Positions 37,859 through 64,000 of a stretch of DNA of 64,000 bases are shown piece by piece. A program made the position numbers and the translations under genes. The DNA is from Candidatus Omnitrophota bacterium (lineage in GTDB: Bacteria; Omnitrophota; Omnitrophia; Omnitrophales; Aquincolibacteriaceae): assembly GCA_030698625.1 (NCBI GenBank), contig JAUYMS010000042.1:28150-92149 (forward strand). Direction: 5' to 3'. The first letter of the stretch is position 1; every line of letters starts with the position of its first letter. The notes under the pieces were generated by a model, which worked only from the letters and a program-made list of their open reading frames with translations, searched no databases and was not told the DNA's origin.

Positions 37859-40800
37859 TTACGCGGCTGTGCGCAATTCTTCCTGTGCGGCAAGATAAGT
37901 CGAAATGGCGGCCATGACGAAGCCGAATGCGTCGGGGGCCAGCTGTGAGGGGTCCAGAATATCGGGCGACTCGGCTAATTGTCTGTGCAGGGAAACGGCC
38001 GCGGTCGTAATGTATGCGGCCAACACCTCTGCGCGCAGTAAAGCATCCGCGGAATATCGAAAACGCGTCAGGCCGCGCCTCCAATGCGGAAAATCATTTC
38101 GGTCGAGCACGCCGTGGCGCTCACCGGTGCCGAAACGGCGCTTCGGAACCGAAACCAATTTCCTGTTCGTCACCGTCGCCACGACTTCAAACTGCCCGTC
38201 GTGTAAAGCAAGTCCCAACCGCTTGGCTTCGTCCAAAATACCTTTTTGGACCCTTTGGGCCTGATCCTCAGTGATGCCTTCAATGTTCAGACGAAGCGCA
38301 CCGGCCGTGTTATAAACAACGGCGAGCACCGGGACAAAGCTCGTGTAATTCTCAGGCGCTTGCGGCAACTGCACATGCACCGCATTCCCCTTCTCGGGCG
38401 TAAATGCTGTCGTTGGTTTGAAACCCAGTTGTTCGGAGATCAAGTCAGAAAATGCCTGCAAATCTTCGGATGTAATTCCTGCGGTCTCGATACCAAGAAT
38501 CAGTTCTACCAAACGGTCCTCGAACCATGCGCGGGCGGCTGTTTGACGTGCCGTAATTCGCCGGCCGTCTTTATCAACGACGGCAACGCGCTCCGGCAGC
38601 CGCACAGCGATACCGGCTTCGGAGAACACAGACCCGAGCCTCGCGGCGACTTCCACAGCGGTTTCTCGGCCCGCCGGATCGAAGCCCGGAACTCCGTCAA
38701 AACGAGTATTTCGGTACCGGCGTCTTACATCGAGGCCGAATTCGTGAGTGGTTGAAATCTCCGAAGGCGCCGCTGCACGTAGTTCCGAGCGGTCAGGTTC
38801 AACAGCAACATCGGGACGGGACGAATCCAAAACACGTTTGCTTTCATTAATAAAATTGCTTATTTCAGGCGACAAATGTGCCCGTTTCGTAAGAAAACCG
38901 TCCGGTCCGGTCATGCCGGCGACAAGCTGGTAAACCGGCAAATAAAACGGCGTCCGGTCACTCCAGTCATGTTTGGCTTGTGCCGCCTGAACGGTCAGGC
39001 TGTCCCATCGTGACCCGTTCCTTTTTTTGATCGCCACGGCCCGGGTGACCGCTTGGAGCAAGGCGTCACCCGTATAGTCGTAAAACAGAAAAGCATCACC
39101 CTTGTCCGTCTCCTCGTCGTAATCATTGAGCGTCGCCGCCAAGCCGCCAACGCCTCGGCCGATGACTAGGGCTCCTCCGGCCAGGGCCTCCATCTGAGTA
39201 ATTCCGCCCGGCTCATAGCGCGAAGGCATGAGGAAGAAATCACTGCCCGTCATGACTTCCCAAGCCGCTTGAATCGGCACAAATGTGAACTGCCCGTAGA
39301 TGCGGCCCGGATACCGGCGCGTTAATTCCGGCAGAATTTGATACAAGGCGTCGGCCGTAGCATCGCCCTGCTTTATGATCGTTCCGCTGGCGTCGCGTTG
39401 ACTCAATGCCGCCGGTCCTGCAATGAAAATTTGAATGCGTTCATCTTTTTTAAGTATCTTTTCCAGCACGGTTTCTCCGCTTTCATCCGTTTCAGTCAGA
39501 AGCGGCAGGCCCTTTTGATCGGAGAGTCTTCCCACCATGGACAGCAGGATCGCGTCGTCACGTTCCTCGAGCCCGTATTTTTTTTGAACGCGGCGTTTCG
39601 TTTCGGCCTTGGCTGCCGGTAAATCACGAAGATACGCCTCGTTACTGAAGTCCTCCGGCGCCCTTCCTGAAAGACCCCAGAGAATCCGCCGAAAAGCGGG
39701 TTGATCGATACCGTTACTGATGCCAAAAAGGCGGTCTGAATATTCGCGAAGGTTCTTGTCGAGCCCCTCCCCGCCTTCCGGTGTCAGCATCTGCTCGGCA
39801 TAAAGTTTACTCATCGTCGTCAGGGCTTGCGTAACCTGGGCAAACGTCGAGGCCACAAGATTCATGTGGTCCGGGTCATTCGGATCCTTAACCAGATCAT
39901 AGGTCATGCGCTGCCGTCCCTGTTCTTCGTATTCATTGGGAAGGTTCAAGAACGGCCACAAATCGATATCACCTTCGTTGGTATAAATGCGTTTCTGAAA
40001 ATGAGGGGGGTAATTATGAATCGTGAACATCGTTTCGGCTTGTTGCAAATAGGGGTCTCTATTGTAGCGGGGTCCCCTGCGGAAAAACAAGGGGATGAGA
40101 CTTGCCATCCAGTCGTGCGCTGAAATGACGTGCGCATCCACGCCGATGCTGCGGTCCTTGAGAATTTCAAGGCTGCCCCGGGAAAGAAAGATCGTGCGTT
40201 TAAGCTCTTCGGAGTGTGACACCTGCGGGTAAAGCTCGTCGCCCAAACGGCGGTGACGCAGAAATAAATAACGGACGCCCCCGTCATTGGCCTCATAGAC
40301 CTTGGCCTTAATGATCCTGGCGAAAGTTCGGACCTTGTCATCCGTAATGCCCGTGATATGGGTGCCTGACCGATAGGTCGGACCGAAAGGGATTGTTACC
40401 TCGCCGACAGGGTCGGGGGCCAGTCGAATGACTTCATCATGGATTCGAAATCCGTCGCGCAATACAGTCTCGGCACTTTCGTGGTGTTTCGGAAGTTCTT
40501 TTTCATACAAAGTTGTGATGACGGTCACGGAAATGCCGCTTCGCACCAACGCGCGGCTCAGCCCTTCCATCACCTTGGCGAGGCCGCCGGCAATCGCGTG
40601 GGACGCCTCAGGAGAAACAAAAACTACCTCACCGACACCGAGCGTTTCTACGGCAAGATAGGCTGGAAGCTTGCGATCCCGTTCGGTCTCGGAATCCGTC
40701 GCAAGGTCTGTACGCAAACGGGCATGATGCTCAAAAAGGCGAACGAGAAGAGCTTCATCATCCTGCACCGCCTCAAAAACTAATTTACCCGTCCCCCGCA

Positions 40801-43800
40801 CCTTGTCGTCGCGGACCAAGCGGTGCATGGTACTGATGTAATCGTCATAATCAGAAATACTACCGCGTATCACGCCGCGGAGACGATTCTTTTCCGCTTC
40901 TCGGTCCGCATCGGCCACCTTATTGCCTTCTCCGAAAGGTACCACAGGCCCATCAATCACCAGTTCCGCGTCGTCTTCCCGGCCGTTGCCTTGCCATAGA
41001 ACGGTTCCGGTTTGGAAATCCTCGACATAAACCGTCAGACCAAATAGACCCGCGCGCCCGGGCCGGACTTCCCCGGTCAATGTGTACGTGCCGTCGCCAT
41101 TGTCGGTGATATTCTCCGGTGTCACTTCATCATCGGTCCAGCGGTAAGCCGGATCACTATAGGAGCCCCAATGCACGAAGAAGTTCAGGTTCGCAAAGTC
41201 TTCGGGCCGGTCGAGGCGGAAATCAATTTCAAGAACACCGCGGTCTTCTTCGCGATTTACGCGAGGTTTGGAAAGAAACTTAACGGACGGGCCTTCACCG
41301 GCCCGCAATTCCGAGCGCTCAGAATCGTTGACGTTCTCGCGGCTCAGTCGCTGTCCTACGTCTTCGGCCAAGCGGCCGAGGAACTCCCGATTCTTGGGGT
41401 CATAAACCCATGCCTCCAAAGCCTCGACACTGCGTTGAAATTTCTGCGGATCCCCTTCTTTTTTGGCTTCTTTGACGCCGTGCCAAAGGTTGCCGACCCC
41501 GAGCCCGAGAGCATCTAAACTATCTAACAATCCAAAATCATCAATGAGATCAATCACTTTTTCGAACTCCTCGACTGACCGAGCATACAGAATACCTGCT
41601 TTCCAGAGATGCGGGTCTTCGTCCGGCTTTATGTAGAAGGGTATCTGACTGGCCAGTAAGGTTGCATGAGTGAACAAAAGCCGCAAGCGCCAAAAGACGG
41701 GGTGCTCTTCAAAAGGAAACGGGTTGCTCTCCGGGTCTGCCAGAAATCGCGCAAAGTCCTCTCTGAATTCCTCCATAATGCCGATCCACTTTTTTGTGGC
41801 CATCTCTTCGTTATCTTCCTCGGAATCAAAGTATTCCTGCAGCGTTGCCGGCTGAGCCGCGTCTTCATCAACGTGAATCTCATAGTGATATCTCTTATAA
41901 TGCGTCACCACCAAATCATAGCCGCCGTAGAGATTGTGCATGAGCTTCGCAAAGTCGTAGAGCGGGTCATTGCCTTCGGGAATGTTTTTGGGGTCTACGA
42001 GTTTAAATTCGCCTAAATCGCCCCGTCCGATAAAGTCAAAAGGATCGGCGAGGATATTTCCGAAATGCAGGTCTCCGTGCTGCTGCGACAGATACGGCGG
42101 CAGAAATATTTGAGGGAAAAGCGGCGTTATCAGACGCAGGACTTCAAGCATAACAGGCAAATTCGGACTAAGCGTGGGTTCCCGGTTCATGAGCGCTAAC
42201 TTAATATAGGGTGCGGCAAACAGGCGGTCGATCTTCTCCGACTTCGCCCGGGCCTCGGCGAAGCGATTATCGAGTTTGTCCCGAAAATGATAGCGGTCGA
42301 GAAAATCCGGAGGTGTCACGCTCTGTCGCCGCAAATAAAAATCGGGCATGAGCCGCTCATAGGTTTCCAAAGCCATCTGGAACGGTGATTTGATCGACGG
42401 GGCAAACCGGCTGAGTGACCGCAGCAACGCCATGTCGCCCAACTCTAAGGCGTCGGTGCCGGCCCGCGGCACATAGTTGACATCAAGTAACCTGGTGAGA
42501 TTCATGGACGGCATGCCTTGAAAGAAAATGTCTTCCATGAGGACAACGGTTGCTTCCGGACTGTCTTCAATGTTGTAAATACTCGGATACCACTTTGCCC
42601 GCGGATCGCCGCTTTCGTAGAGTTCCGCGATCAATCGCGCTTCGGCCAACAGCTTTCCCCCGTCCTCGCGGGGATCGGCCCGCTTTTCGATGAGGGTTCT
42701 AAAACCTTCTGCATCGTCGGGCTCGATGATACGTGTGACCGTACTGTAGGAACCTCCGTGCAACTTCTGTCTTGCGGGAAGTTCCAATTCATAGTCCGGT
42801 TCTTGCGGAATCCAAATCTGACGGACCCGGCGGGCTCCGGTGTTCATCTTTTCCATGGCCCCTGTGCTTAGCATATACATCACACCATAAGCGCCCGGAT
42901 GGTCGCCGGCACGAGCTATCTCCACATAAGGGCTGTCATACACAGTGACATCGCGCGTAAATAGAATACCTTTAGAATCCATAGCTCCGTCCACTATGAG
43001 CGTATCGACCGCACGCCGCATGCGATAGGCGATTTCGGGACCGTGAGATCTCAGGTCTTTGACAATGGCCTGAGTGATGCGGTCACGCTCGGATGCAGCA
43101 AAGATCTCGGGCGGAGTCCCTTCCCAGCCGTCAATAGAATCAGGGGCCGCTACGACCGCCCAGCGAATCCCCTGCGATTCAAGGTCATGTGCAATTTCCC
43201 AAAACTTGAGATCGTCCTTCGCATAAAAAGCCTGTTCCAGCGCTTCAAATTGCGCCATGAGCGCTTCGTCGGACTCCAAAAACCGAAGCTCCGACCGGCC
43301 CCGATGACCTTCGACGAAGCGGTTAAAACCGGCAGATGCCGACAAGAGATTTGCGACCAGGGTTTCCTGGTCCGTATCGCGAGCGGCCTGCTTGGCGCTC
43401 CTATTCAAGTGCACCATGGCAGTCCCTTGATCAAAGGTAAAATCTGCTGCCTGCGCAATTTTTGAGAATACCGGATGCGCGGACAGAGCGGTCATCATGC
43501 GATGAGCGGCGCGCGCTGTTTTCAAACCATAGTGCCCCGTCAAAACGGGAGCGGCCCACTCGAGAAGCCCTTTGAACAACAGGGCCTCTTGCCTGGTCTC
43601 AAACGGATACTTTCCTTCAAAATAACCTTTAAGGTCCGCGTGCCTGCCGGACATGACTTCGCGGTACAAATCCCCATGATCGTAACCGGCACCATTCGGA
43701 CTGACAATCGCATAGCCGGCACCGGCATCTTCCAAAGCCGCGCGCAAGCCTTCGGTATGAAACCCTCCGGCGACGATAACCAGCACGGCACGCGATCTGT

Positions 43801-45337
43801 CTGTGCCCTTCTGCCGGGTTGCGGCGACCGATTCCAGGGCATGAGTAAGCATGAATTCATCACGAAGCCACGCGCTGTCATAAAATTCGTGTGCCCGGCT
43901 CCAGAGTCGTGCACGTCCCAGCTTGTCGCGCTTCTCGGATTCAACCCATAAATCTTTCACGGCCGCCGAACGGCTCCGTATCTCGTTCCATTCATCCCTT
44001 GTCAATTCCCGCCTGAGCAGCTTCTCCACGAGGTCAAGATCCCCGCGCTTTCGCACAAAACCCTTATCTCTTTCCGTTTGAGCAAAGCGATCAATCAGCA
44101 CGGCCTCCAGGCGCTCGACTTCCTGCATAAGATCCACCGCATTAATCTCAGACCGGTAAACGAAAACCCTGAAGGTTAGGAAAAACTGTGAGAAACGGCC
44201 GAGATCCAGCCCGCGCTGTTTCGCCAAAAGATACACGCGTTCGAGCAGCATTCGCGGATAGAAGGAACCGAGCGCCGCTTTGTCTTTAGAGTCCCCGTGC
44301 TCCGCCTGCAGATAGCCATGCCGCACTCCGAACCGCCGCAGCTCTTCAAAGAGTTCATCATCATTGCGATCCGTAGAGTTGGTCCATAACTCGTCCAAGA
44401 GTGTCTGCCACTCGCGGCTTGCGCGCCGGCCGTCCAGAAAGGTCTCCGTTTCCTGAAGGGCGAGCATTCGAATCAGGTTAGGAAACCGCAGTTGTTCAAT
44501 GGGATTCTCGAGATCAACGTTTAACGTTTTACGGACTTGGCCGCGAATATAATCCAGATAGGCTAGCCAGTTTGGTTCACCCAAGGAGCGGCCGGGACCG
44601 AACTTCCCCTGTTTGCGCCGGGCCCGCTCTTTGAGAAAATCTCTTAAGGCCATGCTGTCGAGTTTGGAGCGTTCCGTCTCGAGCTCCGCGTTTAACCACA
44701 GCAAAGATTTTTCGATAGCATCGCCGGCTCGTTCGAGTGCCCGATAGGCCGACAGGTTCTTGCGGTATAGCTCCGGCTTCTCAACTCCGAATACGGGGAT
44801 ATCGGTGCCGCCCTCTACTTTGGCATCGCGATAGCGCCGCCAAGCAAACAGTTCCGCACCGGTAAGCTCGCCTTGATTCAAAAGCTCCTGAACCACGCGC
44901 TCACCCGCTTCGGGGTACTCCGGGAAAAAGTCAAAATACTCAGGATGAAGCTCCCCGCTAGCCCCTTCAACGGCAACCTGCAGGGAAGCCCCTGTTGCTT
45001 TCGCATTCTGAGCGAGATGTTTCAATATATAGAAGATGTTTTGCTGGGCCTCGGGATTGGCATGCATATCACGGATATGGACTACGAAGGGCAGTTGCTC
45101 CTGCTCGGAGCCCACGACATTTTGGACATACCCTATTTCTCCGGGAAGGGCACCGAGTATATCGAGGAAGGGGGACTCCGGATGGAGTCCGGACATCATA
45201 CGCGCCTCAAGGTCGCTCGGCGGCATGAGCGCCGGCAGCGTAGGCGCAGACCATGCCACCGTTGTCACAAACATATTAAATGCGACAACTAAAGCGGATA
45301 GTCTCAGGACTCCTGACTTTCTAAATTCGAAAACCAT
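37859..45337 (-). CDS. giant multidomain protein B (2492 aa): signal peptide, Tiki/TraB-like N-domain, APH-like kinase domain, CBM-like module, GT5 glycogen-synthase-like domain, uncharacterised C-terminal region
   Basis: Intact ORF in the track. N-terminus MVFEFRKSGVLRLSALVVAFNMFVTTVAWSAP shares the TTVAWSAP signal-peptide end with gene A. Three in-frame RSELR sites at 38777-38791, 41303-41317 and 43283-43297. Flanked by tRNA-Lys upstream and tRNA-Glu 28 nt downstream. Confidence 0.85.
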   Translation of the reverse strand: MVFEFRKSGVLRLSALVVAFNMFVTTVAWSAPTLPALMPPSDLEARMMSGLHPESPFLDILGALPGEIGYVQNVVGSEQEQLPFVVHIRDMHANPEAQQNIFYILKHLAQNAKATGASLQVAVEGASGELHPEYFDFFPEYPEAGERVVQELLNQGELTGAELFAWRRYRDAKVEGGTDIPVFGVEKPELYRKNLSAYRALERAGDAIEKSLLWLNAELETERSKLDSMALRDFLKERARRKQGKFGPGRSLGEPNWLAYLDYIRGQVRKTLNVDLENPIEQLRFPNLIRMLALQETETFLDGRRASREWQTLLDELWTNSTDRNDDELFEELRRFGVRHGYLQAEHGDSKDKAALGSFYPRMLLERVYLLAKQRGLDLGRFSQFFLTFRVFVYRSEINAVDLMQEVERLEAVLIDRFAQTERDKGFVRKRGDLDLVEKLLRRELTRDEWNEIRSRSAAVKDLWVESEKRDKLGRARLWSRAHEFYDSAWLRDEFMLTHALESVAATRQKGTDRSRAVLVIVAGGFHTEGLRAALEDAGAGYAIVSPNGAGYDHGDLYREVMSGRHADLKGYFEGKYPFETRQEALLFKGLLEWAAPVLTGHYGLKTARAAHRMMTALSAHPVFSKIAQAADFTFDQGTAMVHLNRSAKQAARDTDQETLVANLLSASAGFNRFVEGHRGRSELRFLESDEALMAQFEALEQAFYAKDDLKFWEIAHDLESQGIRWAVVAAPDSIDGWEGTPPEIFAASERDRITQAIVKDLRSHGPEIAYRMRRAVDTLIVDGAMDSKGILFTRDVTVYDSPYVEIARAGDHPGAYGVMYMLSTGAMEKMNTGARRVRQIWIPQEPDYELELPARQKLHGGSYSTVTRIIEPDDAEGFRTLIEKRADPREDGGKLLAEARLIAELYESGDPRAKWYPSIYNIEDSPEATVVLMEDIFFQGMPSMNLTRLLDVNYVPRAGTDALELGDMALLRSLSRFAPSIKSPFQMALETYERLMPDFYLRRQSVTPPDFLDRYHFRDKLDNRFAEARAKSEKIDRLFAAPYIKLALMNREPTLSPNLPVMLEVLRLITPLFPQIFLPPYLSQQHGDLHFGNILADPFDFIGRGDLGEFKLVDPKNIPEGNDPLYDFAKLMHNLYGGYDLVVTHYKRYHYEIHVDEDAAQPATLQEYFDSEEDNEEMATKKWIGIMEEFREDFARFLADPESNPFPFEEHPVFWRLRLLFTHATLLASQIPFYIKPDEDPHLWKAGILYARSVEEFEKVIDLIDDFGLLDSLDALGLGVGNLWHGVKEAKKEGDPQKFQRSVEALEAWVYDPKNREFLGRLAEDVGQRLSRENVNDSERSELRAGEGPSVKFLSKPRVNREEDRGVLEIDFRLDRPEDFANLNFFVHWGSYSDPAYRWTDDEVTPENITDNGDGTYTLTGEVRPGRAGLFGLTVYVEDFQTGTVLWQGNGREDDAELVIDGPVVPFGEGNKVADADREAEKNRLRGVIRGSISDYDDYISTMHRLVRDDKVRGTGKLVFEAVQDDEALLVRLFEHHARLRTDLATDSETERDRKLPAYLAVETLGVGEVVFVSPEASHAIAGGLAKVMEGLSRALVRSGISVTVITTLYEKELPKHHESAETVLRDGFRIHDEVIRLAPDPVGEVTIPFGPTYRSGTHITGITDDKVRTFARIIKAKVYEANDGGVRYLFLRHRRLGDELYPQVSHSEELKRTIFLSRGSLEILKDRSIGVDAHVISAHDWMASLIPLFFRRGPRYNRDPYLQQAETMFTIHNYPPHFQKRIYTNEGDIDLWPFLNLPNEYEEQGRQRMTYDLVKDPNDPDHMNLVASTFAQVTQALTTMSKLYAEQMLTPEGGEGLDKNLREYSDRLFGISNGIDQPAFRRILWGLSGRAPEDFSNEAYLRDLPAAKAETKRRVQKKYGLEERDDAILLSMVGRLSDQKGLPLLTETDESGETVLEKILKKDERIQIFIAGPAALSQRDASGTIIKQGDATADALYQILPELTRRYPGRIYGQFTFVPIQAAWEVMTGSDFFLMPSRYEPGGITQMEALAGGALVIGRGVGGLAATLNDYDEETDKGDAFLFYDYTGDALLQAVTRAVAIKKRNGSRWDSLTVQAAQAKHDWSDRTPFYLPVYQLVAGMTGPDGFLTKRAHLSPEISNFINESKRVLDSSRPDVAVEPDRSELRAAAPSEISTTHEFGLDVRRRYRNTRFDGVPGFDPAGRETAVEVAARLGSVFSEAGIAVRLPERVAVVDKDGRRITARQTAARAWFEDRLVELILGIETAGITSEDLQAFSDLISEQLGFKPTTAFTPEKGNAVHVQLPQAPENYTSFVPVLAVVYNTAGALRLNIEGITEDQAQRVQKGILDEAKRLGLALHDGQFEVVATVTNRKLVSVPKRRFGTGERHGVLDRNDFPHWRRGLTRFRYSADALLRAEVLAAYITTAAVSLHRQLAESPDILDPSQLAPDAFGFVMAAISTYLAAQEELRTAA
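39150..40650 (-). other. GT5 glycogen/starch-synthase-like glycosyltransferase domain within protein B
   Basis: N-terminal SPEASHAIAGGLAKVMEGLSRAL (K-x-G-G-L motif) and C-terminal SRYEPGGITQMEALAGG (E-P-x-G-x-x-Q-x-E-A) of GT-B retaining synthases; motif DNA at about 40567-40620 and 39185-39235. Confidence 0.55.
40990..41290 (-). other. beta-sandwich carbohydrate-binding-module-like region (CBM25/CBM53-like) preceding the GT5 domain of protein B
   Basis: FANLNFFVHWGSYSDPAYRW...GTYTLTGEVRPGRAGLFGLTVYVEDFQTGTVLWQGNG begins directly after ERSELRAGEG. The arrangement resembles the starch-binding-domain plus GT5 layout of starch synthase III. Confidence 0.3.
41890..43240 (-). other. APH/choline-kinase-like phosphotransferase domain within protein B
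   Basis: HGGSYSTV ... QQHGDLHFGNIL (HGDxxxxN catalytic loop) ... GNDPLYDFAKL. Paralogous to the domain in protein C. Confidence 0.6.
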
Positions 45338-45597: not shown

Positions 45598-45602
45598 AAC
45601 AC

Positions 45603-46175
45603 CTAGATCGAATGGATTTCTGTTTCCTTCTGTTTCAGGGCCGAGTCCACCTCGCCGATGAACTTATCGGTGATTTTCTGAATGTCTTTCTGTGCGACAT
45701 GCGACAAATCTTCCGGCAGCGACTTGTCTTTCTCGAGCTTCCGGACCTGCTCAATCGCTTCATGCCGCGAATTCCGCACCGAGACACGCCCCTCTTCGGC
45801 CGCTTTCCTGACGACCTTGCCCAATTCGTCACGCCGCTCTTCGGTAAGCGCCGGCAGCTGAATGCGCAGCACTTTACCGTCATTGATCGGCGTCAGGCCG
45901 AGATCCGCCATCAGAATGGCGCGCTCAATCTCGGGAATGACTCCGGGGTCCCACGGCGTAATTGCGATCGTCTTCGGATCAGGCGTGGAGATATTTGACA
46001 TATTCTTAAGCGGGGTCGGTGTATCATAATAGTTCACCTGAATCCCCTCAACCAGCGCAATTGAGGCACGGCCCGTACGGATATTCTGAAACTCCTTTTT
46101 GGTGACCTCAAGCGCCTTCGCCATCTTTTTTTCCATCTCACTGACTACTTTTTTGACATCCATCGTTTCTACCAT
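45603..46175 (-). CDS. frr: ribosome recycling factor
   Basis: 190 aa with full-length RRF architecture; position in the rpsB-tsf-pyrH-frr cluster. Confidence 0.9.
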   Translation of the reverse strand: MVETMDVKKVVSEMEKKMAKALEVTKKEFQNIRTGRASIALVEGIQVNYYDTPTPLKNMSNISTPDPKTIAITPWDPGVIPEIERAILMADLGLTPINDGKVLRIQLPALTEERRDELGKVVRKAAEEGRVSVRNSRHEAIEQVRKLEKDKSLPEDLSHVAQKDIQKITDKFIGEVDSALKQKETEIHSI

Positions 46176-46195
46176 AATACCCTCCGAATTGAAAA

Positions 46196-46930: not shown

Positions 46931-46941
46931 GAGGGAAGGCG

Positions 46942-47544: not shown

Positions 47545-47566
47545 ACTCACGGTTTGAATTCCTCTT

Positions 47567-57700: not shown

Positions 57701-60700
57701 GCGCAGAAGGCGTGCCTCTTTCAACACTTGGGGAATTCCGGCAAACGACCCGCGCACAAGCCGTTCGCTTGGGTTTGGATTTTGCGTATCCACATTGAGA
57801 CCTGACATAAAAATCCGGCCTCCCAACCGCTTCATCACGGGGAAATCCAGTAACTTGTCCAGCCCCAAGGCAAATTCTGCCAAGGTTCCTATGGAAAAGG
57901 GGTACGGGTGAACGATCTTTGTTTGCCCTTTCTGCTCCGCGACGTGCCAGCGGAATCGGCCTACCCACTGTTCAACGACATCACGATCGATCGTGATGTC
58001 GTGCACATTGTCGGCGGACGCCGTCGCCCTCAGCTCAGAACGATCCTTCTCATCCTCGAAAGATCGGAGGAAATCGTCAGCCGCTTCCGTATCGAGAAGG
58101 CGCTCTACCAACACATCCACAGGGACATCGTCACTGTAGTAAAGTTGGATGGCTTCAAATAAAAAGCTCCATCCTAAGCGGGCGCGAGTCGCTTTGCTCT
58201 CCCGGGCATGAACGGGGTTTTCAGGATCCAGTTCGCGCGCTTGCTCGTGCTGGAGAATCGCCAATCGGTAATACCGGTGGGCGTCCCACCAGTCCAAGAC
58301 CTCTGCCGCGGCATCCCCGCCTAAACGATAAGCATTCCCGAGCGCCGCATGGGCGGAGGTTTTCTGCGCTGTTGCGATGCGGTCGTCGGCCGTATAGGTA
58401 AGCGCCGCTTCCTGCTTTTTGATGGCCCGCTCATAGAGATCTTCGGCCTTACGAAGATTACCCAATTCCACTTCGACGTTCGCCTGCCTCAGGTAGTTGG
58501 TGCCTTGAGCGCTTAGGATTTTGGCCATCACACCGGCGTACTTGGATCTTTGCTCAGGCTCGCCTGGTTTGTTTATTCCGATACCGGTCTGCTCGGTGAT
58601 GTCGTCCAATGCTTTTCGAGCTCGAGTTCTCTTTTTTCCCTTCTTGGGTGCCTCTGCGCTTTTTAGGGCGAACTTTTCCGCCTTGCCAAGGTGGCCCATG
58701 GCCTTTCTGAGGATTTTAAGCCGTTGACGCGGATCGTGTTGCAATTCATACGAAACATCAATGGCTGTAGAGACATCCACGGCTGTCTGAAACCACTCGT
58801 CGGCCCTTTCGATATTGAGGCCGGCTTTTCCGCCTTCGGTAGTCGGGCCCAACAAGTAGCGATGTTCGGCCGGGTCCGGGCCGGCCGGCGCCGCGTCCTC
58901 CTGCTTGGTCGATAGCATGTACTGCCTGAGGAACCGCTTCACGACCCGCTCGTCACGGCCGTTTCCGAGATGCCGGTTCAGCATGTGTACGACAAACTTC
59001 TTGGTTTGTTCCAACCCCGCACCGTTTTCACCACCGGCCGCTTTGTAGACATGCGCCACCAGGGCTTCAAAGAGAGTCGAGTGATAATCTTCGCCCTCGG
59101 TCACCAACTGGGAGTGGACATCTGCAAGCGCGGCCATCATCACACTCGCCAAAAGGCGGTTGGAGGCGATAATGCCGTGCAGATGCCGGAAGACATCGTA
59201 CTGTTTCCACTCATCGGGCACATCATCGGCTCGCCACATATCGACTAAAAGCGATAGAACAACCATATCCAATATCGAGTCACCCCAGGTCGCGTACCGT
59301 TCGTCGATAATAAAAGGGAACTTATGCGGAGTCGCGCTGGTGGCATACTCCCGCTGTCCCTTAGACGCCGTTGTAATGGCCATGAGCTGGTCAGGTGAGA
59401 GGCGGTTGCCTTCAAAAAGGATCTCTCCCAGTTTCGCGCGTGCTTTCGGATGAGCATCCAGCAAGGTGCCTACGGCAAGTAGCTGCCTACGGCGCATGGG
59501 CGGGCCGGTATGCGGTTCAAAGATCGGTTCCATCGAGGTTCCCTCCGGCTCATAATCCAGGCCGTCAAACGACGGGTGCAGCAACGCTTTAATGGCGCTC
59601 TCATGGCCTTCCGTGTACAGGGCCCCGATCATAAGAAACATGAGATATTTACGCGTGTCACGCGTCGCATAAAAGGCGTTCGGATCAAAATCTCCGGCCC
59701 CCTTCGCCAGCTCCGTGAAAGAGTTATAAAGTTTGTGATGACCTAACCACAGTTCCCGCACTGAAGGGTCGGCCGCGTTAATAAAGTCGTGCAGACTTTT
59801 TTCATGAATGCCTGGATAACGGCCCATCGCATATTGAATGAGGGCGTGTTTGTATACAAAATTACCCAGGAAGTAGAAGAACCCGGCCTGCTTCGCTAAC
59901 TTTCCTTCGGTTGAAACGCGCATAAGCGCCGCTGCGCCTTTTTCCCATGCCGCACGCTGCTCGTCACTTTCAGAGGCGATGTGCTGCGCATAGGCCCCGT
60001 CAACGCGTGCAAAGTCACGCTTCGTGGGATCCGTCGTTCCGCGCGGCCCCTTACGGTAAACATAGGCGCGGCGTCTGCGGCGGTCGGTTGCCGTTCTTAT
60101 CTTTTCAAAACCCATGTAATTAAGCCAGGCAAACTGTTTATTGTCATCGATCTCGCGGACCGGGATATCCGTGATAAGGACCCCTCCCTCGCGGAGGGCA
60201 TTATGGGCCGTCGCGTAAAACGTGCTGAAGCTCGCGACGCGGTTTTGCTGCACTCCGAGCATGAGGCCGCTTCTTTTAACCTCCATGCCGTCCATATAAA
60301 TCAGATCCAATTCATCCTTGTATTCCAACAGGGCATCGGCCAAAGCAAAGGGGTTGTACGAACTCCCCAGCGGATCAACTGCCGGAATGCTGTCAATCGT
60401 CATACCCCGCTTTCTGAAATCTAAATTGAGAGCCGCGGACTCTTCACGATCCCCCACATGAACGGCTTTCTTCCCCTCCACACCCCCCGGGAAATATTCT
60501 CTGACGGCAATGTGGAGAAGTTCGTGTCCGGGCCGCAAATTTGCCTCTCTGGCGGATTTTAGTTTTGCCTGCATGCGATGATTTATGACATGCTTGAGAA
60601 AATCCTGGGTCATCTCACTGTCGCTTGGTGTCCCTTTACGAAACGCCAGCAGAAGCTGTCCGGGCAGATTTCCTATCACTTTAATTTGCTCAAAACCCAT

Positions 60701-63700
60701 GTAGCGCAGCCACGCCGACTGTTTGCCCTCGGCCGCCCCGCCTTCAGGCACCGTCACAAAAAGGACTCCGTCATCTTTGATCAAGTCGCGAAGGGCCCCA
60801 TACCGGACCGAAAATGCGGTCGTCCCGTTCCTCTCATCTCCCGGCATCATCCCGCCCTCCCGCACCGCTTCTCCGTCAAAATACACAAAGTCATATTGTT
60901 CACTTTCTTCAAGCACCATATTGGAACGGCCCAGGAGTTCGTCATAGAGCGCTTCTCCCATCCGAGACTCCCCTTCGGAATCGAGACGTGTGATCTCATC
61001 CATCTCGGCACCCCGAGCTTTAAGTGCCGCCTGAAGCTGATCGGCACCTTTGACCGAACCGATTTCAAGACCGCGCTTTCCTTTGAGGTCGTCGCCATAA
61101 TAAGCGTCAAACGCTAAGTAGAAATTGAGAAGTTCCGGTCTTTTTACCGTCGCCATCCCCTTCCCCATTTTTTCTGTCCGGAGCCTCAGGACATCCGTAT
61201 TCTTTGCCTCCGTCCTGAGTTCAGAGCGCTGGGAAAAGGAGGCTTGGAAGTGGTCTGCCGCTTCGCGCGCAACCCGAAGCACGGCCTCAGGCGCCGGGTG
61301 ATGGCCTTCCCCTTCGAGCATAACCAGCGGCGACCCCGTCTCACTTGCGAATTGCGTCATGAGGTCGCGGTCGGTCTGATGTGTAATCCAATCTTTGTCG
61401 CCAAAAAACAGGAGTGTGGGGTGTTCTTTTGCTTTCAGCCGGCTGAAGTCGTCGATGGAAAAACCGTACTTGTTCAACTCAACCATGAGCCGAAGATGCC
61501 GTCTTAAGCGGCCGCTAATATCAGCGCCCCCGGGTTCCATCCCAAGCACATTCCCGGCATAGGCATCCATATGCCAGATATTCCGCGAAGAAGTAAAGGT
61601 GGCTCGGGCAGGAGCATTGATCGTCGCTGTTGCCCGCACATTTTTCGCCACGAAGTCTGAATTCGCCAGAGCGCGCAATGCCGCATAACCCCCAAAGCTG
61701 TATCCGAACATCGCAATATTTTGGGCTTCGATCTCCGGACGCCCCTGCAGAAAACCAATGGCGGCTTCCACGAAGCGCACCAGGTGCTCGGGGCCCTCGA
61801 GCGGCGTGTCGTGATCGCCGTGTCCGGGAAAACTCAGTCTAAACACCGCAAAGCCGCGATCTATCATTTCCATTTCGATCGGGTCTAACTCCGCCTGCTC
61901 ATGGGTATGCGTTAAACCATGGAGCAGGATCACAACGGGAACCTTTTGCCCCGGATCTCGATGCGGAGGGAGAAAGAGATAACCGGGATAACTCGGGTGG
62001 GTAATCTCTTCGATCTCAGGCGGCACTCGGCCTGCCTCTTCATATTCGGCCACGCGGCCCTTTTTATAGATCCCGCGATGGGCGCCCTCGACTTCGTGAC
62101 TCCGCCCAATTTTCTGCGTCGTGTAACTCTGTGCGTTATAGAGAAGCCTTCGCTGCTGGGCGATGTCGCCTGCCTCATGCGCCAACCGAGCCTCGTCGAG
62201 CAGGATTTCCCGCAAGGCCGGAATCCATTGTGTGAAAAAAGCAAGCCGTGCGGTCCGTTCGATGATACGCTCAGTGGTCTCCTCACCGATTCGCGAAGCA
62301 ATCATCGCGGCACGGACCTCCCCCTTATTAGTGAGAAACCACTTCCTCCACTGATACCAAGGGTTGAAACGAGTGCCGGGCGGAAGCTCAGAGCGCTCGG
62401 CTCGCAATTCGGAGCGTTCCTTTTTCGGATCCCACCGGAACTTCCATTTCTGATCCAGTCGAATATCGGGAAAGTCCTCAAGAACTGTTCCCTGCAAATC
62501 ATCATATTGCCAAAGTCCGTCACGAACTTTTTGCAGGCCCATATTTTCAAATTCACGGGGAATGCGTGTCTCAGCGGGTACATGGAGCTCGAGCACTTCG
62601 GCCCCGTTGGCTTTGGCCAGCCGCATCGCAAGGATCAGGAATGTGCGCGTAAGTCCGATATACCTGTCCTCACCGCGAGCTGTCAGGTCAACATCGTTGG
62701 TCGATACCGCTGCCTTTTCCCCGCGAAGCTCCAGGCTCAAGGAGCCCACCGACACTTCCGCGTCGCTCTTAGACGTTCTCGCATTGCCCTCGATGCGGAC
62801 AGAGACGTGATTTTCGGCACGAGTCCTTTCCCAGCGAAAATAGATATTTCTAAAGGAGTTCGACAAAGGCAGCCTAAAGCGGCCGAGTCGCGGGGATTCG
62901 TTGCCGCGCATGACCGTATCAAAAGTCGTGGTCTCGCGCGAGGCCGCCAGGGCCCTTTTACGAAGATAGTTCTCGCTAATCTCCACAACCGCTCTTCGAA
63001 TGTCATGAATGCGCTGTTCTTTCGGTTGGCCTTCGTACAGGGATGCGTACACGTGCAAGGTGTAAAGAATGTTGGGGATTGCCGTTTGTGTCCATGCCGG
63101 CAGCCAGTCCTGCCAGAATTCCTCCAACTGACTCTGCAGCGCGGCAGGGGGAGTCGGAACCACGCGTTTCGGAAAACCTTTGGCCGACATCAAGCGTTTG
63201 AACTCAACAAAGAACTCCTCAATCAGACCCGCTCGCAGTAGAAGATAGACAATTTCCTCCTGAATCCTGTACGGAAGGATCATACTCCCGGAATCGGTTC
63301 GCTGTGCGTGGTGCAGCATACGGCGTGCCCTGCGGTAAAAGTGCTCGGCCTTTTTGGAGTGCCCCATACTGTCATAGGCCACGCCCCAGACCTCGAGTTT
63401 GTGAGCCGCATTCCCGAAATTCTCACGGGTCAAAAGATCCGCATGGTTCGCGTAGTCTTCCGCGCCACGCCGAACCTTCTGTATGGCGGCTTCCAACCCG
63501 TCAGCATAAGCCACAATGCCCGGTTCCTCAGCCAACACCCGCCGGGCATCCTCTTCAGCCGTAACCTGATCTTCTATGACCAGAGGGCTAAGAACCGCGT
63601 CTATCTGCTTATCCGTAATCCCCTCAAAGAGAACACTCTTGTCTTTGAAATCCTCCTTGGCTACCTCGGCACGGATGCGGTCGTGACGGACCTGTGCCGT

Positions 63701-64000
63701 ATAACCTTCCTCATGCAGGTCGTGAAAGAGGTCAATGACATATTGCGCCCGGTTCAGGTAAAGCGCCACGATAACCTGGTGGAGCTCATTGTCGGGCTCA
63801 AGATAGTCGAGCAGCTTTTTGGAGATATAGATTGCCCGGCGTCTGAGTGACAAACGGCTGGGTTCGGCAAATTTGGTTTCGAGATCGGAAAAATAGAAAT
63901 AGGTGTGCATGTCCTTACCGATGACCGTCGTCGTGCTCTCAAATGTCTCAATCCGCGCCTGCATCTGGCGATCACCGGCCGCCCGGGCGATCTGCTTCCA
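51761..64000 (-). CDS. giant multidomain protein C (at least 4079 codons; N-terminus outside window): TPR-like regions, alpha/beta-hydrolase, methyltransferase-like repeats, RNase III-like signature, APH-like kinase, RmlD-like reductase
   Basis: Track ORF 51761..63964 (4067 aa). The frame upstream of the listed ATG stays open to nt 64000 (WKQIARAAGDRQ-M...), so the listed start is internal. Seven in-frame RSELR copies at 52697-52711, 53594-53608, 55391-55405, 58028-58042, 61214-61228 and a tandem pair at 62384-62416. Confidence 0.85.
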   Translation of the reverse strand, partial: WKQIARAAGDRQMQARIETFESTTTVIGKDMHTYFYFSDLETKFAEPSRLSLRRRAIYISKKLLDYLEPDNELHQVIVALYLNRAQYVIDLFHDLHEEGYTAQVRHDRIRAEVAKEDFKDKSVLFEGITDKQIDAVLSPLVIEDQVTAEEDARRVLAEEPGIVAYADGLEAAIQKVRRGAEDYANHADLLTRENFGNAAHKLEVWGVAYDSMGHSKKAEHFYRRARRMLHHAQRTDSGSMILPYRIQEEIVYLLLRAGLIEEFFVEFKRLMSAKGFPKRVVPTPPAALQSQLEEFWQDWLPAWTQTAIPNILYTLHVYASLYEGQPKEQRIHDIRRAVVEISENYLRKRALAASRETTTFDTVMRGNESPRLGRFRLPLSNSFRNIYFRWERTRAENHVSVRIEGNARTSKSDAEVSVGSLSLELRGEKAAVSTNDVDLTARGEDRYIGLTRTFLILAMRLAKANGAEVLELHVPAETRIPREFENMGLQKVRDGLWQYDDLQGTVLEDFPDIRLDQKWKFRWDPKKERSELRAERSELPPGTRFNPWYQWRKWFLTNKGEVRAAMIASRIGEETTERIIERTARLAFFTQWIPALREILLDEARLAHEAGDIAQQRRLLYNAQSYTTQKIGRSHEVEGAHRGIYKKGRVAEYEEAGRVPPEIEEITHPSYPGYLFLPPHRDPGQKVPVVILLHGLTHTHEQAELDPIEMEMIDRGFAVFRLSFPGHGDHDTPLEGPEHLVRFVEAAIGFLQGRPEIEAQNIAMFGYSFGGYAALRALANSDFVAKNVRATATINAPARATFTSSRNIWHMDAYAGNVLGMEPGGADISGRLRRHLRLMVELNKYGFSIDDFSRLKAKEHPTLLFFGDKDWITHQTDRDLMTQFASETGSPLVMLEGEGHHPAPEAVLRVAREAADHFQASFSQRSELRTEAKNTDVLRLRTEKMGKGMATVKRPELLNFYLAFDAYYGDDLKGKRGLEIGSVKGADQLQAALKARGAEMDEITRLDSEGESRMGEALYDELLGRSNMVLEESEQYDFVYFDGEAVREGGMMPGDERNGTTAFSVRYGALRDLIKDDGVLFVTVPEGGAAEGKQSAWLRYMGFEQIKVIGNLPGQLLLAFRKGTPSDSEMTQDFLKHVINHRMQAKLKSAREANLRPGHELLHIAVREYFPGGVEGKKAVHVGDREESAALNLDFRKRGMTIDSIPAVDPLGSSYNPFALADALLEYKDELDLIYMDGMEVKRSGLMLGVQQNRVASFSTFYATAHNALREGGVLITDIPVREIDDNKQFAWLNYMGFEKIRTATDRRRRRAYVYRKGPRGTTDPTKRDFARVDGAYAQHIASESDEQRAAWEKGAAALMRVSTEGKLAKQAGFFYFLGNFVYKHALIQYAMGRYPGIHEKSLHDFINAADPSVRELWLGHHKLYNSFTELAKGAGDFDPNAFYATRDTRKYLMFLMIGALYTEGHESAIKALLHPSFDGLDYEPEGTSMEPIFEPHTGPPMRRRQLLAVGTLLDAHPKARAKLGEILFEGNRLSPDQLMAITTASKGQREYATSATPHKFPFIIDERYATWGDSILDMVVLSLLVDMWRADDVPDEWKQYDVFRHLHGIIASNRLLASVMMAALADVHSQLVTEGEDYHSTLFEALVAHVYKAAGGENGAGLEQTKKFVVHMLNRHLGNGRDERVVKRFLRQYMLSTKQEDAAPAGPDPAEHRYLLGPTTEGGKAGLNIERADEWFQTAVDVSTAIDVSYELQHDPRQRLKILRKAMGHLGKAEKFALKSAEAPKKGKKRTRARKALDDITEQTGIGINKPGEPEQRSKYAGVMAKILSAQGTNYLRQANVEVELGNLRKAEDLYERAIKKQEAALTYTADDRIATAQKTSAHAALGNAYRLGGDAAAEVLDWWDAHRYYRLAILQHEQARELDPENPVHARESKATRARLGWSFLFEAIQLYYSDDVPVDVLVERLLDTEAADDFLRSFEDEKDRSELRATASADNVHDITIDRDVVEQWVGRFRWHVAEQKGQTKIVHPYPFSIGTLAEFALGLDKLLDFPVMKRLGGRIFMSGLNVDTQNPNPSERLVRGSFAGIPQVLKEARLLRVKSKKFARYDGQGNFDLAADMVIPFVGAIHREDGTELTEEEMASVGLEWVRDSENAYVHLPLLQTAVKPTRQGTVLMPKNKIKMIVNDGKMKILATAQDYEAFIGEEMGQAADAALAEIKEQTRSGVAGVSKTEFGDRLIPGLEMYDEVYRALYMIALFNFARQLGHKLAFEVIALQYKGIGGKYTMHTAPLADVIAGTAAPQLVLADAGHEQVDGTGVSVVQDPRLEGKSGVFLTSYQHSNVAIGGSSLEEEAAVRHDKLLLENGAYLSAITIAAEEILSREDLSRLGVSEKLEPLYASVRVIVDDTRSLSDIMVGGMQNYLVDEIDPDLDKARDNYLSDLSEMLALNIAAVLKSHLTIKYVDMATHVKSGFTRNVSPAGLLKDTGDLVPITIPQDALILIRSLFTGLFVVAEATGLKREDYRKGPHFKTVIETLIKSLGGSEAQIAAALDKAEGLRQELVATESGYKTKRLLSALMRTAFDQWADVQGISTRETEWIFQGKLELVDDMLDIAEPRFGLLFKGRPEIAGLEVNNLADVHKPSEGFTRVLSNGDFGDIAALFGRKGQDIGFITENIGILRTQLGGDDLRYVAGSAVRGIQADDFVTLIHTILVPDVSDISAEELPAYKKISRAVILDHIAMFIAMFLESRAGQAGDEAARALLEEWYGRIALSEPEMQRLHGLFSRSAAALRHVADNEFAIAQDFSPKFALFVDPDSVYNEMAVEFTDSDRDFFGRLFGYLGRRYDEDGHAFVLPRKAAAIAGTDRSELREVEVTDETLFAALNSGDQQKFKALTRQAERDGFRWALIPAEDSPEKWQKAAGDTKVWNYEEHEKLFHYLTAEIHFASKQVVREAQQVVDASIVAAATGGGGLVFMREVASDKKAEVEVVSVPVRRNVVPEIYFMMGDYYPLGSRFGRTSRYGIPNIARIAGLGVRSERLHGGSYSTVERKFYPDGRVLIEKRANTAKDKGKLRREAEFIRRLQSEGDKRGEWFPKLLRIHDDGEDTVVEMEDIPWPNLTRVIEHSVLSPELSLANRTPFEMAVDIYRNLLPDLYLKKVADTPEDFVDQKHFEKLDERWAEAARDSEVARRLLAAPYLEIRKRKVNRYNGMTSPLQKQYRPNLPTTKRVLELLSSLHPMRFVPPYLSEQMGDLHFGNILIDRFHYAITGEISRMKFVDPKWMAEGNDPLYDFAKLLHNQEGRYDLALNHSHAYHFEIELPGTEGGAAVLSEYHDLSDANTANMLSNIKEFSAAFRVFMRDDTVKDELFPFEVNGFWKDRLLFTHATLLAGLLPYHVVGDEREWKMSVIYEQAVQAVYEVVHRFFEMGILDSTPELRDIWSKIETTRFDETSFSQAIEELETYLADRSELRTKRVAVIGASSFVGSEIDKAARKVYANVSGTAYSRVGDVFAALDVKDEAAVRRFIAEFRPDVIVYAAGEPTAEGAEADRAKAYALNVTAVETVRRYFDGPLIYLSSNYVFEGGNAPYGADAEPRPLNYYGETKAAGEKLVLEHPKGAVVRLGIGYGEAAIQKNFIKQVVDFLDSDDESASLVLDNEQVRHPTSVRDVASLTLDIIQGNKTGIHQINGAESLTKYEWARLIAEVYYEIYPNRAKETDKIGMAQVKADSPGIGKPRNAHMINSRVPTPLVDAVRAIIPKLSVHDTDRSELRAEGPRRSPVVTVSPEALITLKKFREFLMSRLLVQTLGPEGARDLLSQVLGKKVFAVTAGIFPERVESAIEKAGGKYMAAVNYPERVQADHPGLAESGTGRVILDPDWMQALLDSPRALYVFLEALDEFHAQSQSSEPFVAVMANPALYAEIRRRLTNRNAEIGLGMVKTMALRRSGGLLSRLDKLIEVVSYEGSVAEAMNSYIKAHDYAVAAFLADDVQYLSDIIGSANFVLNPDEVHETDRQAAALMIPEILKAAELIRGVSDPIKQREILIRQLPMILPGVSSSRGAFIINLAEYVEELRSQKAVEIYA
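52950..53590 (-). other. RmlD-like (dTDP-4-dehydrorhamnose reductase / extended SDR) NAD(P)-binding domain within protein C
   Basis: KRVAVIGASSFVGSE glycine-rich loop ... PLIYLSSNYVFEGGNAPYGADAEPRPLNYYGETKAAGE (YxxxK catalytic dyad); the domain begins 3 residues after an RSELR. Confidence 0.6.
53950..55380 (-). other. APH/choline-kinase-like phosphotransferase domain within protein C (paralog of the protein B domain)
   Basis: HGGSYSTV ... EQMGDLHFGNIL ... GNDPLYDFAKL; catalytic-loop codons at about 54231-54262. Confidence 0.6.
58990..59300 (-). other. RNase III-like signature region within protein C
   Basis: ERYATWGDSILDMVVLSLL (compare ERLEFLGDSIL), SNRLLASV (compare NTLAELA), and STLFEALVAHVY (compare DTVEALIGGVF). 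The D-to-E spacing of 71 residues matches RNase III D45-E117. The position equivalent to D114 is Thr. Confidence 0.35.
61250..61960 (-). other. alpha/beta-hydrolase fold domain within protein C
   Basis: VVILLHGLTHTHEQ ... GYSFGG nucleophile elbow (DNA 61691-61711) ... later acid and His (GEGHHP). Confidence 0.7.
62384..62416 (-). repeat. tandem RSELR-A-ERSEL peptide motif (two adjacent copies of the linker motif) in protein C
   Basis: KERSELRAERSELPPG encoded by CGC TCC GAA TTG CGA GCC GAG CGC TCT GAG CTT; the two copies use different codons. Confidence 0.7.

Follow-up and report, generated by a model that had tools for sequence, protein, structure and literature searches.

Modular giant proteins of an Omnitrophota genome and an invariant pentapeptide as their candidate processing site

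Whether the giant multi-enzyme open reading frames (ORFs) of Omnitrophota act as one polypeptide or are cut into several products is a published puzzle, and the same question is raised by three genes, here called A, B and C, that lie in a stretch of 64,000 nucleotides (nt) of a Candidatus Omnitrophota genome (GenBank assembly GCA_030698625.1, contig JAUYMS010000042.1, positions 28,150 to 92,149), hereafter the window. A preliminary description of the locus, whose coordinates (37859-64000) leave out gene A, had treated the three genes as a paralogous family that seemed to shuffle cassettes delimited by the pentapeptide RSELR and that could spread or rearrange by means of neighbouring tRNA genes. 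The motif proved to be the part of that description worth following up, and the idea of tRNA hotspots can be dropped. The explanation that accounts best for the observations as a whole, to which a probability of about 0.5 is given, is that A, B and C are modular giant proteins, made as an exported precursor that would be cut at the motif.

An invariant pentapeptide between protein-sized units

The motif RSELR occurs 21 times in the products of the three genes (12 copies in A, 3 in B and 6 in C), against 0.04 occurrences expected from composition, and it was found in no other frame or gene of the window. Cutting the proteins at the motif yielded 24 segments (A1 to A13, B1 to B4 and C1 to C7; Table 1), which were compared all against all by blastp and by phmmer to an expectation value (E) of 0.1. 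The same signal is seen in the protein family that shares the N-terminal domain (N-domain) of A and B. In 152 proteins, that is, the representatives of this family together with A, B and C (443 kaa, thousand amino acids), 704 copies of R[SA]E.R were counted and 26 were expected, and at least three copies were present in 61 of the 91 representatives of at least 2000 amino acids (aa). The commonest 5-mer in most of the long members is R-[S/A]-E-x-R, with the variants RSELR, RSEVR, RSEMR, RSEAR, RSETR and RAEVR, the fourth position being L, V, M, A, I or T, and its copies are spaced by a median of 265 aa (interquartile range 143-532). Its neighbours are small residues or Pro on the N-terminal side and acidic residues on the C-terminal side, the flanks being otherwise variable. 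Some N-domain lineages without R-S-E-x-R carry other 5-mers, such as GARLA, present 11 times in locus L077 (1805-13039), or GASLG, ASSLG and KSEGR, found among the representatives P0108, P0115, P0138, P0147, P0137 and P0145; such replacement by other invariant 5-mers is expected if the signal co-evolves with its reader. A literature search with the motif variants as whole words returned only papers on PL7 alginate lyases, which are unrelated, and matches inside words were only to varSelRF.

A separate observation was made in locus L022 (3-5135), the 3′ part of a neighbouring giant ORF, in which RSELR recurs every 40-80 aa, with 9 copies in about 700 aa, and which ends in ...RSELRTSMAA. This spacing implies that some motif-delimited units are peptide-sized and not enzyme-sized.

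The position of the motif is informative with respect to its role. Segment A5 contains two internal repeats of about 330 aa (28.8% identity, E 2e-49) and segment C3 two of about 190 aa (29.7% identity, E 3e-24), and no RSELR stands between the repeats in either case. Because the motif is absent between these duplicated domains, it is not a generic interdomain linker; RSELR separates protein-sized units. Moreover, the Pfam model of the RmlD-type reductase begins at residue 3 of segment C6, so that the motif sits where a free-standing enzyme would start. In the structural models of segments B1 and B4, the motif falls in low-confidence tails (residues 651-685 of B1 and residues 1-6 of B4), where the predicted local distance difference test score (pLDDT) is below 50.

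The motif is invariant amid variable flanks, lies at natural protein borders, does not occur within multi-domain cassettes, gives way to other 5-mers in some lineages and falls in predicted flexible regions. In view of these five observations, the giant proteins may be polyproteins, exported as precursors and cut at the motif, a claim that, judged from sequence, stands at an even chance or slightly below it. The precursor would be exported via a single Sec-type signal peptide, and a cognate endopeptidase, possibly the N-domain itself, would cut it at the pentapeptides, releasing a fixed set of enzymes in the manner of a bacterial polyprotein. A broader proposal, rated somewhat below even odds, is that polyproteins of this kind are widespread in bacteria and are processed by a code written as R-[S/A]-E-(hydrophobic)-R, for which other lineages use GARLA-like 5-mers. 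In such a system, one signal peptide and one pair formed by the N-domain and a C-terminal domain (C-domain, described below) would take unrelated enzymes, up to dozens of them, through the membrane together. A 2A-like or otherwise self-cleaving element at the motif was also considered and is unlikely, given that the flanks of the motif are not conserved.

Several points weigh against cleavage of an exported precursor. The search for the proposed protease gave no candidate: no peptidase family of Pfam matched the segments at a significant level, except for peptidase-type matches inside the generic alpha/beta hydrolase of C2, and neither structure nor sequence linked the N-domain significantly to any known protein, ChaN and EreC being weak Foldseek matches only. 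The dependence of the cargo enzymes on ATP, nucleoside diphosphate (NDP) sugars or NADPH is unexpected in a protein that leaves the cytoplasm. In addition, jackhmmer detected the family C-domain in B and not in the last segment of C, and a bias in the first two codons of the motif suggests that something besides the protein sequence is under constraint.

The first of these points also bears on the possibility that the pentapeptide stays uncut and serves as an inter-module element of one giant scaffold, for example as a hinge, a modification site or a docking site such as one for HEAT modules. In published work such proteins are each taken as one membrane-associated polypeptide, the segments yielded no cognate protease, and the HEAT repeats, the CheR-like methyltransferase and the kinase-like modules among the cassettes are possible readers or modifiers of the motif. 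A passive linker, however, would not keep five invariant residues amid freely varying flanks, and both the absence of the motif between duplicated domains within cassettes and its location at the natural N-terminus of a free-standing enzyme also speak against this reading. Since Ser alternates with Ala at the second position, phosphorylation of Ser is not the point of the motif, which counts further against an uncut scaffold, an explanation that is regarded as doubtful.

The codon bias leads to another alternative, in which the motif would be mainly a nucleic-acid signal, either a microhomology joint for the in-frame exchange of cassettes or a signal for mRNA processing or translation kinetics, with its conservation in the protein as a secondary effect. 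In the window, the first Arg is encoded by CGC in 16 of the 21 motifs, against a background of 32% (p 5e-5), and Ser is always encoded by TCN and never by AGY. The same CGC-KCC preference was found in other genomes, where 65 motifs from 13 ORFs (loci L003, L006, L007, L013, L018, L019, L021, L022 and L029) had 32 CGC codons with 15.8 expected and had TCC or GCC, almost never AGY, at the second position. The shuffling of cassettes can also be cited for a nucleic-acid role, as can a stretch of 1.4 kb that is 100% identical in two paralogues of one related metagenome-assembled genome (MAG). Nevertheless, the codons for Glu, Leu (all six of which are used) and the second Arg (AGA, AGG, CGN) follow background usage in the window and are likewise unbiased in the other genomes, no nucleotide similarity extends past the 15 nt of the motif, and the motif is read in one frame and strand only, solely inside giant ORFs. 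As these three codons vary synonymously, selection acts at the protein level, and a signal residing mainly in the nucleic acid is judged improbable.

Bracket domains and exchangeable cassettes

In A, B and their relatives the N-domain precedes the cassettes, and in B and most complete relatives a second domain closes the protein. A full HMMER search with the N-domain in 1.84 billion representatives retrieved 8684 proteins at E≤1e-3, of which 3700 reached E≤1e-30; the domain invariably covers residues ~1-650, and the longest of these proteins have ~7800 aa. A scan of one genome per species located 78 loci, mostly in MAGs of Omnitrophota and Elusimicrobiota and often several per genome. Further members, which according to the preliminary description were to be sought in related genomes, are plentiful there. 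A word-indexed homologue search was insensitive for this family, with 2 matches for the N-domain, 1 for the kinase-like cassette and none for segment C1; one of the matches to the N-domain of B, P0001, carries ERSELR directly after this domain. An N-terminal hydrophobic helix was present in 124 of the 147 representatives starting with Met, in many of them followed by an A-x-A-type site or by W-S-A-P.

The N-domain spans about 550-600 aa and has conserved H-x-x-D-x-H, E and G-G-x-H motifs. The AlphaFold2 (AF2) model of the B copy (pLDDT 78.5; predicted template modelling score, pTM, 0.74) presents an alpha/beta core split by a helical insertion of ~320 residues. Foldseek found nothing at E≤0.001 for this model in the PDB, the best match (E 0.05) being to coiled-coil proteins; ChaN (2g5g, with the highest probability, 0.44) and EreC (6xcs) were among the weak matches, and the N-domain profile had no significant match among PDB sequences. 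The C-domain (~300 aa), traced by jackhmmer from the last segment of B, occupies the extreme C-terminus of 38 representatives, usually with the motif before it. Its model (pLDDT 83) has a Rossmann-like alpha/beta fold, for which Foldseek returned from the PDB only generic Rossmann-like matches with a template modelling (TM) score of about 0.2. The last two residues are [A/S/Q]-A in 112 of the 150 representatives (P0001-P0150), where the tail resembles ...AIQGYLQIRTAA; nearly every complete member has this ending after a conserved ...AIQGYLxIxxAA-like stretch, to which the last residues of B (37862-37900) correspond. The C-terminus could thereby be recognised, for instance by a tail-specific protease or in secretion. 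By these comparisons, A and B are placed in a large family composed of a signal peptide and N-domain, variable cassettes and, where the end is visible, the C-domain.

The existence of this family bears on the question of whether the long ORFs are genes at all. Chance open frames or assembly artefacts would be conceivable only insofar as the source is a metagenome assembly; Pfam domains are found in frame throughout, homologues number in the thousands, a protein identical to the 2492 aa of B is held by an independent collection (P0003), and the same flanking region of the window is present in the Logan assembly of run SRR13727534. The likelihood of an artefact is negligible.

The relations among the three genes differ from pair to pair. 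As had been pointed out from the sequence, the signal peptides of A and B both end in TTVAWSAP, placed at the end of the N-terminal hydrophobic stretch in each, and the 24 nt encoding it differ between the genes at 3 sites, all synonymous. The N-domain motifs HIQDAH/HIRDMH, EGASG, GGFH(A/T)EGL and YA(R/I)VSP are also present in both, and the alignment of the N-domains goes beyond them (27.5% identity over 559 aa, E 2e-44 by blastp and 1e-42 by phmmer). Closer relatives exist elsewhere, A1 being 47.6% identical to P0044 and B1 38% identical to L002, its best identity among the 78 loci, of which the best are Omnitrophota MAGs; given this best value, the genome of the window is not itself one of the species representatives scanned. 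Since each is closer to relatives in other genomes than to the other, A and B are true but ancient paralogues. Genes B and C share a cassette, as residues 686-1345 of B match residues 2871-3469 of C (35% identity over 630 aa, E 1e-108), a region that includes GIRWAVVAAPDSIDGWE and GFRWALIPAEDSPEKWQ, respectively, and that covers the whole cassette of ~600 aa together with the N-terminal flank already noted. All other segment pairs were unrelated, even at phmmer E≤0.1. The all-against-all comparison thus revealed similarity far beyond chance and past the motifs first quoted, and its finding of only two related segment pairs agrees with the view that the remaining domains differ among the three genes. 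The idea of a paralogous family of three stands in part: it holds for A and B as ancient paralogues and for one duplicated cassette of B and C, and the C-terminal cassette of C is unrelated to the C-domain of the family.

At the DNA level, nothing beyond features common to tRNAs is similar between the 5′ ends of A and B, and a recent gene conversion between the two genes was rejected on this basis. In the Omnitrophota MAG STB_104, two N-domain genes (L008:561-1960 and L010:3924-5323) share 1400 nt at 100% identity; downstream of this block identity decays from 90% to 77% and the sequences then become unrelated, as they are upstream. The block arose either by conversion between the two paralogous genes or as an error of assembly.

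In the window, the cassettes found between the bracket domains comprise glycogen-synthase-like GT5, kinase-like, PfkB, HAD, NTP-transferase-like, methyltransferase-like, ATP-grasp and HEAT types, to which C adds an RmlD-type reductase and an alpha/beta hydrolase. Half of the 24 segments had no Pfam match even at E 5, and at E≤5 nothing meaningful was obtained for the N-domain, the kinase-like cassette, A8, B4, C7 and others. The strings G-D-M-H, I-E-A and L-G-E-L-H of A8 (7790-8797) recall a ChaN/TIKI-type motif set, but this suspected ChaN-like cassette had no Pfam match, and its comparison with the N-domain profile by hhalign was not significant. Strong internal hydrophobic helices were detected in A at residues ~3603-3625 (A7) and ~3977-3995 (A8, window ~8090-8150), and none follows the signal peptide in B; the topology of A must therefore differ on either side of its internal helices.

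Evidence of exchange comes from the positions at which homologous cassettes recur. Segments A9 and A10 (A residues 4096-5104) are 34-47% identical to two cassettes directly after the N-domain in P0041 and P0042, A9 reaching ~47% over whole cassettes of both proteins and an A10-like cassette coming next there. The counterparts of B3 in P0041, P0042 and P0030 stand at three different positions, and B4 recurs C-terminally in many members, so that cassettes placed here in two separate genes occur within one gene elsewhere. These alignments span from motif to motif in both partners (P0041, P0042, P0030 and P0032). The shuffling of RSELR-delimited cassettes that had been suggested is supported by such occurrences in different proteins and positions, and the motif-to-motif cassette is the unit of evolution.

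The cassette shared by B2 and C5 had been labelled kinase-like, and this label is plausible but unproven. Both copies share LHGGSYSTV.R, IEKR, (H/M)GDLHFGN, VDPK and GNDPLYDFAKL, including the catalytic-loop pattern H-x-D-x-x-x-x-N with a downstream Asp (HGDLHFGN...VDPK in B and MGDLHFGN...VDPK in C), and the order of these motifs is the one expected of APH or eukaryotic-like kinases, namely a glycine-rich loop, a lysine, a catalytic loop and a metal-binding Asp. The motifs are present, as claimed, but no significant Pfam or PDB match sustains the label: the only Pfam match at E≤5 was TCAD9 (E 0.013), the N-lobe-like LHGGSYSTV.R...IEKR aligned weakly and not significantly to the CaMKII N-lobe (E 0.3-1.7, PDB sequences), and the sole PDB sequence match of the B2 core, also not significant, was to the catalytic loop of mycobacterial maltokinase (4u94, E 0.59). 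The glycogen-synthase-like cassette that comes next in B would suit a maltokinase-type enzyme, which is a lead only. Compared with the APH and eukaryotic-like kinase fold, maltokinase included, B2 and C5 are alike in the catalytic-loop stretch, and they differ in that C5 has Met in place of the first His and in that neither matches APH in Pfam.

tRNA genes and chromosomal context

Exactly three tRNA genes were found by ARAGORN in the window, all on the minus strand, and their reported positions relative to A and B were borne out (Table 1). The statement that each giant gene is adjacent to a tRNA holds for A and B; C has no neighbouring tRNA in the window. Such genes were suggested to be hotspots of integration and recombination through which members of the family insert and spread, and some observations are compatible with this: all three tRNAs flank A or B, a truncated serine recombinase and a low-GC patch adjoin tRNA-Glu, and among relatives a same-strand tRNA lies at most 900 nt upstream in 5 of 67 N-domain genes versus 3 of 238 others (odds ratio 6.3, p 0.014), a modest enrichment from a comparison that is not phylogenetically independent. 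Nonetheless, no integrase was found beside tRNA-Ala or tRNA-Lys and no recombinase between any tRNA and A or B, the region 37000-46000 around B showed no att-like direct repeats of tRNA ends, and the GC content of B and C (0.53-0.56) shows no compositional shift from that of the housekeeping genes (0.51-0.56). Comparison with a relative also speaks against insertion, as the order rpsB-tsf-pyrH-frr-tRNA-Lys(ttt)-N-domain gene is the same at locus L010 of another Omnitrophota MAG, STB_104, whose four housekeeping genes are 68-83% identical to those of the window and whose tRNA-Lys likewise lies directly upstream of the giant gene; this conserved order indicates stable synteny and not integration. 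The spread of the family through tRNA hotspots is therefore considered very improbable.

Transcriptional context held in common, more than mobility, may lie behind the enrichment of upstream tRNAs. A sigma-70-like site is present between tRNA-Lys and B, and no terminator-like site was found between B and tRNA-Glu. The neighbouring tRNAs of the giant genes reflect a conserved chromosomal context and perhaps transcription. As in tRNA-linked genomic islands, A and B lie directly 3′ of same-strand tRNA genes; in contrast to such islands, they have no integrase, att repeats or compositional shift, and their synteny is conserved.

The low-GC patch extends over 33430-37750 (0.47-0.49, with the dip at 34-38 kb) on the 3′ side of tRNA-Glu. 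It contains the remnant of a large serine recombinase, the sole trace of a mobile element, which lies outside B on the far side of tRNA-Glu. The patch looks like a decayed element, integrated at tRNA-Glu and distinct from B.

Outside the giant genes, the window is ordinary chromosome. NCBIfam identified an acetylornithine-aminotransferase family member, an aldehyde dehydrogenase, surE, rpsB, a methylenetetrahydrofolate reductase and an M48 peptidase, and Pfam identified an ABC transporter, a bactofilin and a YdjC-like gene. From the conserved gene order, those that follow rpsB are assigned to tsf, pyrH and frr. The M48 peptidase was examined as a conserved partner protease of the giant proteins and was rejected, being absent from 78 of 78 related loci, though few of these loci extend as far as the 3′ end of a giant gene. 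A complete N-domain gene of 2865 aa without R-S-E-x-R, found in a marine Omnitrophota MAG (L030:9827-21409), lies directly upstream of rpsB-tsf-pyrH-frr, on the side of the cluster that C occupies in the window, where a few genes intervene. The last 40 nt of the window, towards the N-terminus of C, were absent from JGI metagenome contigs.

Table 1. Features of the window, with positions counted from its first nucleotide.
Feature	Position	Strand	Remarks
Giant gene A	2..20074	minus	at least 6691 aa from MRSRFLK; 3′ end off window; 13 segments
A signal peptide or anchor	19997..20074	minus	MRSRFLKTIALIVAANFALTTVAWSA; hydropathy peak 1.78
A segment 1	17930..20074	minus	family N-domain with HIQDAH, EGASG, GGFHAEG
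A segment 4	14183..16333	minus	HEAT repeats and YheC/D-type ATP-grasp (Pfam)
A segment 5	10052..14182	minus	1377 aa; weak GNAT match (Pfam)
A segment 7	8798..9277	minus	strong hydrophobic helix at start, VFFILAAGLPIAAVLLHIL
A segment 9	5840..7789	minus	weak NTP-transferase-like match (Pfam)
A segment 10	4763..5839	minus	CheR-type methyltransferase-like (Pfam)
A segment 11	1763..4762	minus	HAD hydrolase and PfkB sugar kinase (Pfam)
RSELR (A)	17930..17944	minus	
RSELR (A)	17009..17023	minus	
RSELR (A)	16334..16348	minus	
RSELR (A)	14183..14197	minus	
RSELR (A)	10052..10066	minus	
RSELR (A)	9278..9292	minus	
RSELR (A)	8798..8812	minus	
RSELR (A)	7790..7804	minus	
RSELR (A)	5840..5854	minus	
RSELR (A)	4763..4777	minus	
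RSELR (A)	1763..1777	minus	
RSELR (A)	602..616	minus	
tRNA-Ala(ggc)	20376-20448	minus	301 nt upstream of A ATG
PIF1-like helicase	33430-34659		low-GC patch
DUF6036/DUF2204 nucleotidyltransferase-like ORF	34683-35438		low-GC patch
Truncated large serine recombinase	36523-37425		C-terminal fragment of 300 aa; Zn_ribbon_recom, without catalytic domain
tRNA-Glu(ttc)	37753-37830	minus	28 nt after B stop
Giant gene B	37859..45337	minus	2492 aa, complete; 4 segments
B signal peptide or anchor	45245..45337	minus	MVFEFRKSGVLRLSALVVAFNMFVTTVAWSA
B segment 1	43283..45337	minus	family N-domain
B segment 2	41303..43282	minus	kinase-like cassette (HGDLHFGN), paralogous to C segment 5
B segment 3	38777..41302	minus	N-terminal region without family match, then GT5 starch/glycogen-synthase-like and GT1 (Pfam)
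B segment 4	37862..38776	minus	family C-domain (~300 aa); tail ...AAQEELRTAA
RSELR (B)	43283..43297	minus	
RSELR (B)	41303..41317	minus	
RSELR (B)	38777..38791	minus	
tRNA-Lys(ttt)	45524-45597	minus	186 nt upstream of B ATG; same arrangement in L010
rpsB-tsf-pyrH-frr housekeeping cluster	45603..48484	minus	upstream of tRNA-Lys
M48-family metallopeptidase (BepA/LoiP-like)	50459-51580	same as C	180 nt downstream of C
Giant gene C	51761..64000	minus	at least 4079 aa; 5′ end off window; 7 segments
C segment 2	61214..62401	minus	alpha/beta hydrolase (Pfam)
C segment 3	58028..61213	minus	1062 aa, without Pfam match
C segment 5	53594..55390	minus	kinase-like cassette (MGDLHFGN), paralogous to B segment 2
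C segment 6	52697..53593	minus	RmlD-type reductase (Pfam)
C segment 7	51764..52696	minus	C-terminal cassette, unrelated to family C-domain; ends ...EIYA
RSELR (C)	62402..62416	minus	
RSELR (C)	61214..61228	minus	
RSELR (C)	58028..58042	minus	
RSELR (C)	55391..55405	minus	
RSELR (C)	53594..53608	minus	
RSELR (C)	52697..52711	minus	

Comparison with known systems

The motif set of the N-domain recalls the pattern GxxH...E...GxxH of the TIKI/TraB/ChaN/erythromycin-esterase superfamily, which includes EreA. The N-domain has a beta-strand followed by D-x-H, a beta-strand followed by E-G, and a G-G-x-H motif; its core is split by the helical insertion, and no Foldseek match to the superfamily was significant, the best match lying elsewhere.

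Viral polyproteins and the gingipain-type proteins RgpA, Kgp and HagA of Porphyromonas yield many mature proteins from one ORF, with short recognition sites between them, and the gingipain precursors are cut after Arg or Lys. In the giant proteins, by contrast, cleavage is only predicted, no protease of those families was detected, the cassettes number up to 13 or more and the cargo is of another kind. The nearest analogue by working principle, without homology to A, B or C, is provided by the multifunctional-autoprocessing MARTX toxins of Vibrio, in which conserved ends enclose variable, recombining effector cassettes that are released by site-specific processing. RTX repeats or a C80 cysteine-protease domain were matched by Pfam in none of the 24 segments. 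In addition, the cargo here consists of sugar, nucleotide and kinase-type enzymes, and the delimiter is a fixed pentapeptide and not a Leu-X site in a loose linker.

The closest comparison is with the giant proteins already described in Omnitrophota, namely the 'Archaeovorins' (West-Roberts et al. 2023, bioRxiv 10.1101/2023.11.21.568195) and the 'multi-enzyme metabolic clusters' (bioRxiv 10.64898/2026.06.07.730766), with a further source in Seymour et al. 2023 (PMC10066038). In both bioRxiv studies, cleavage by embedded C39 or S8 peptidase domains was proposed, and in the former the cleavage points were called unknown. Genes A, B and C belong to the same phylum and likewise tile HEAT, starch-synthase, GT1, HAD, kinase and methyltransferase modules on one polypeptide with a signal peptide and/or transmembrane helices; they differ in being far shorter (2.5 to at least 6.7 kaa, A and C being cut by the window) than the catalogue cut-offs of 30 kaa (10.1101/2023.11.21.568195) and 10 kaa (10.64898/2026.06.07.730766). 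An inter-module motif or bracket domains are mentioned in neither of these two studies, the word 'motif' appearing only in the reference list of the 2023 one. Multi-enzyme giants were thus already known, and the literature searched contained neither the motif nor the two bracket domains.

With respect to these published giants, a lineage-specific invariant pentapeptide at the borders of mobile, enzyme-sized cassettes provides testable candidate cut sites and may mark the cleavage points, and the two bracket domains define the carrier of the cassettes. Gene B, with 2492 aa and four cassettes, is small enough for expression and testing. If the motif is a processing site, it would supply the missing cleavage map for the giant Omnitrophota proteins and allow their computational splitting into mature products, thousands of 'unannotatable' giant proteins could be divided into ordinary enzymes for annotation and structure prediction, and bacteria would gain a true polyprotein strategy.

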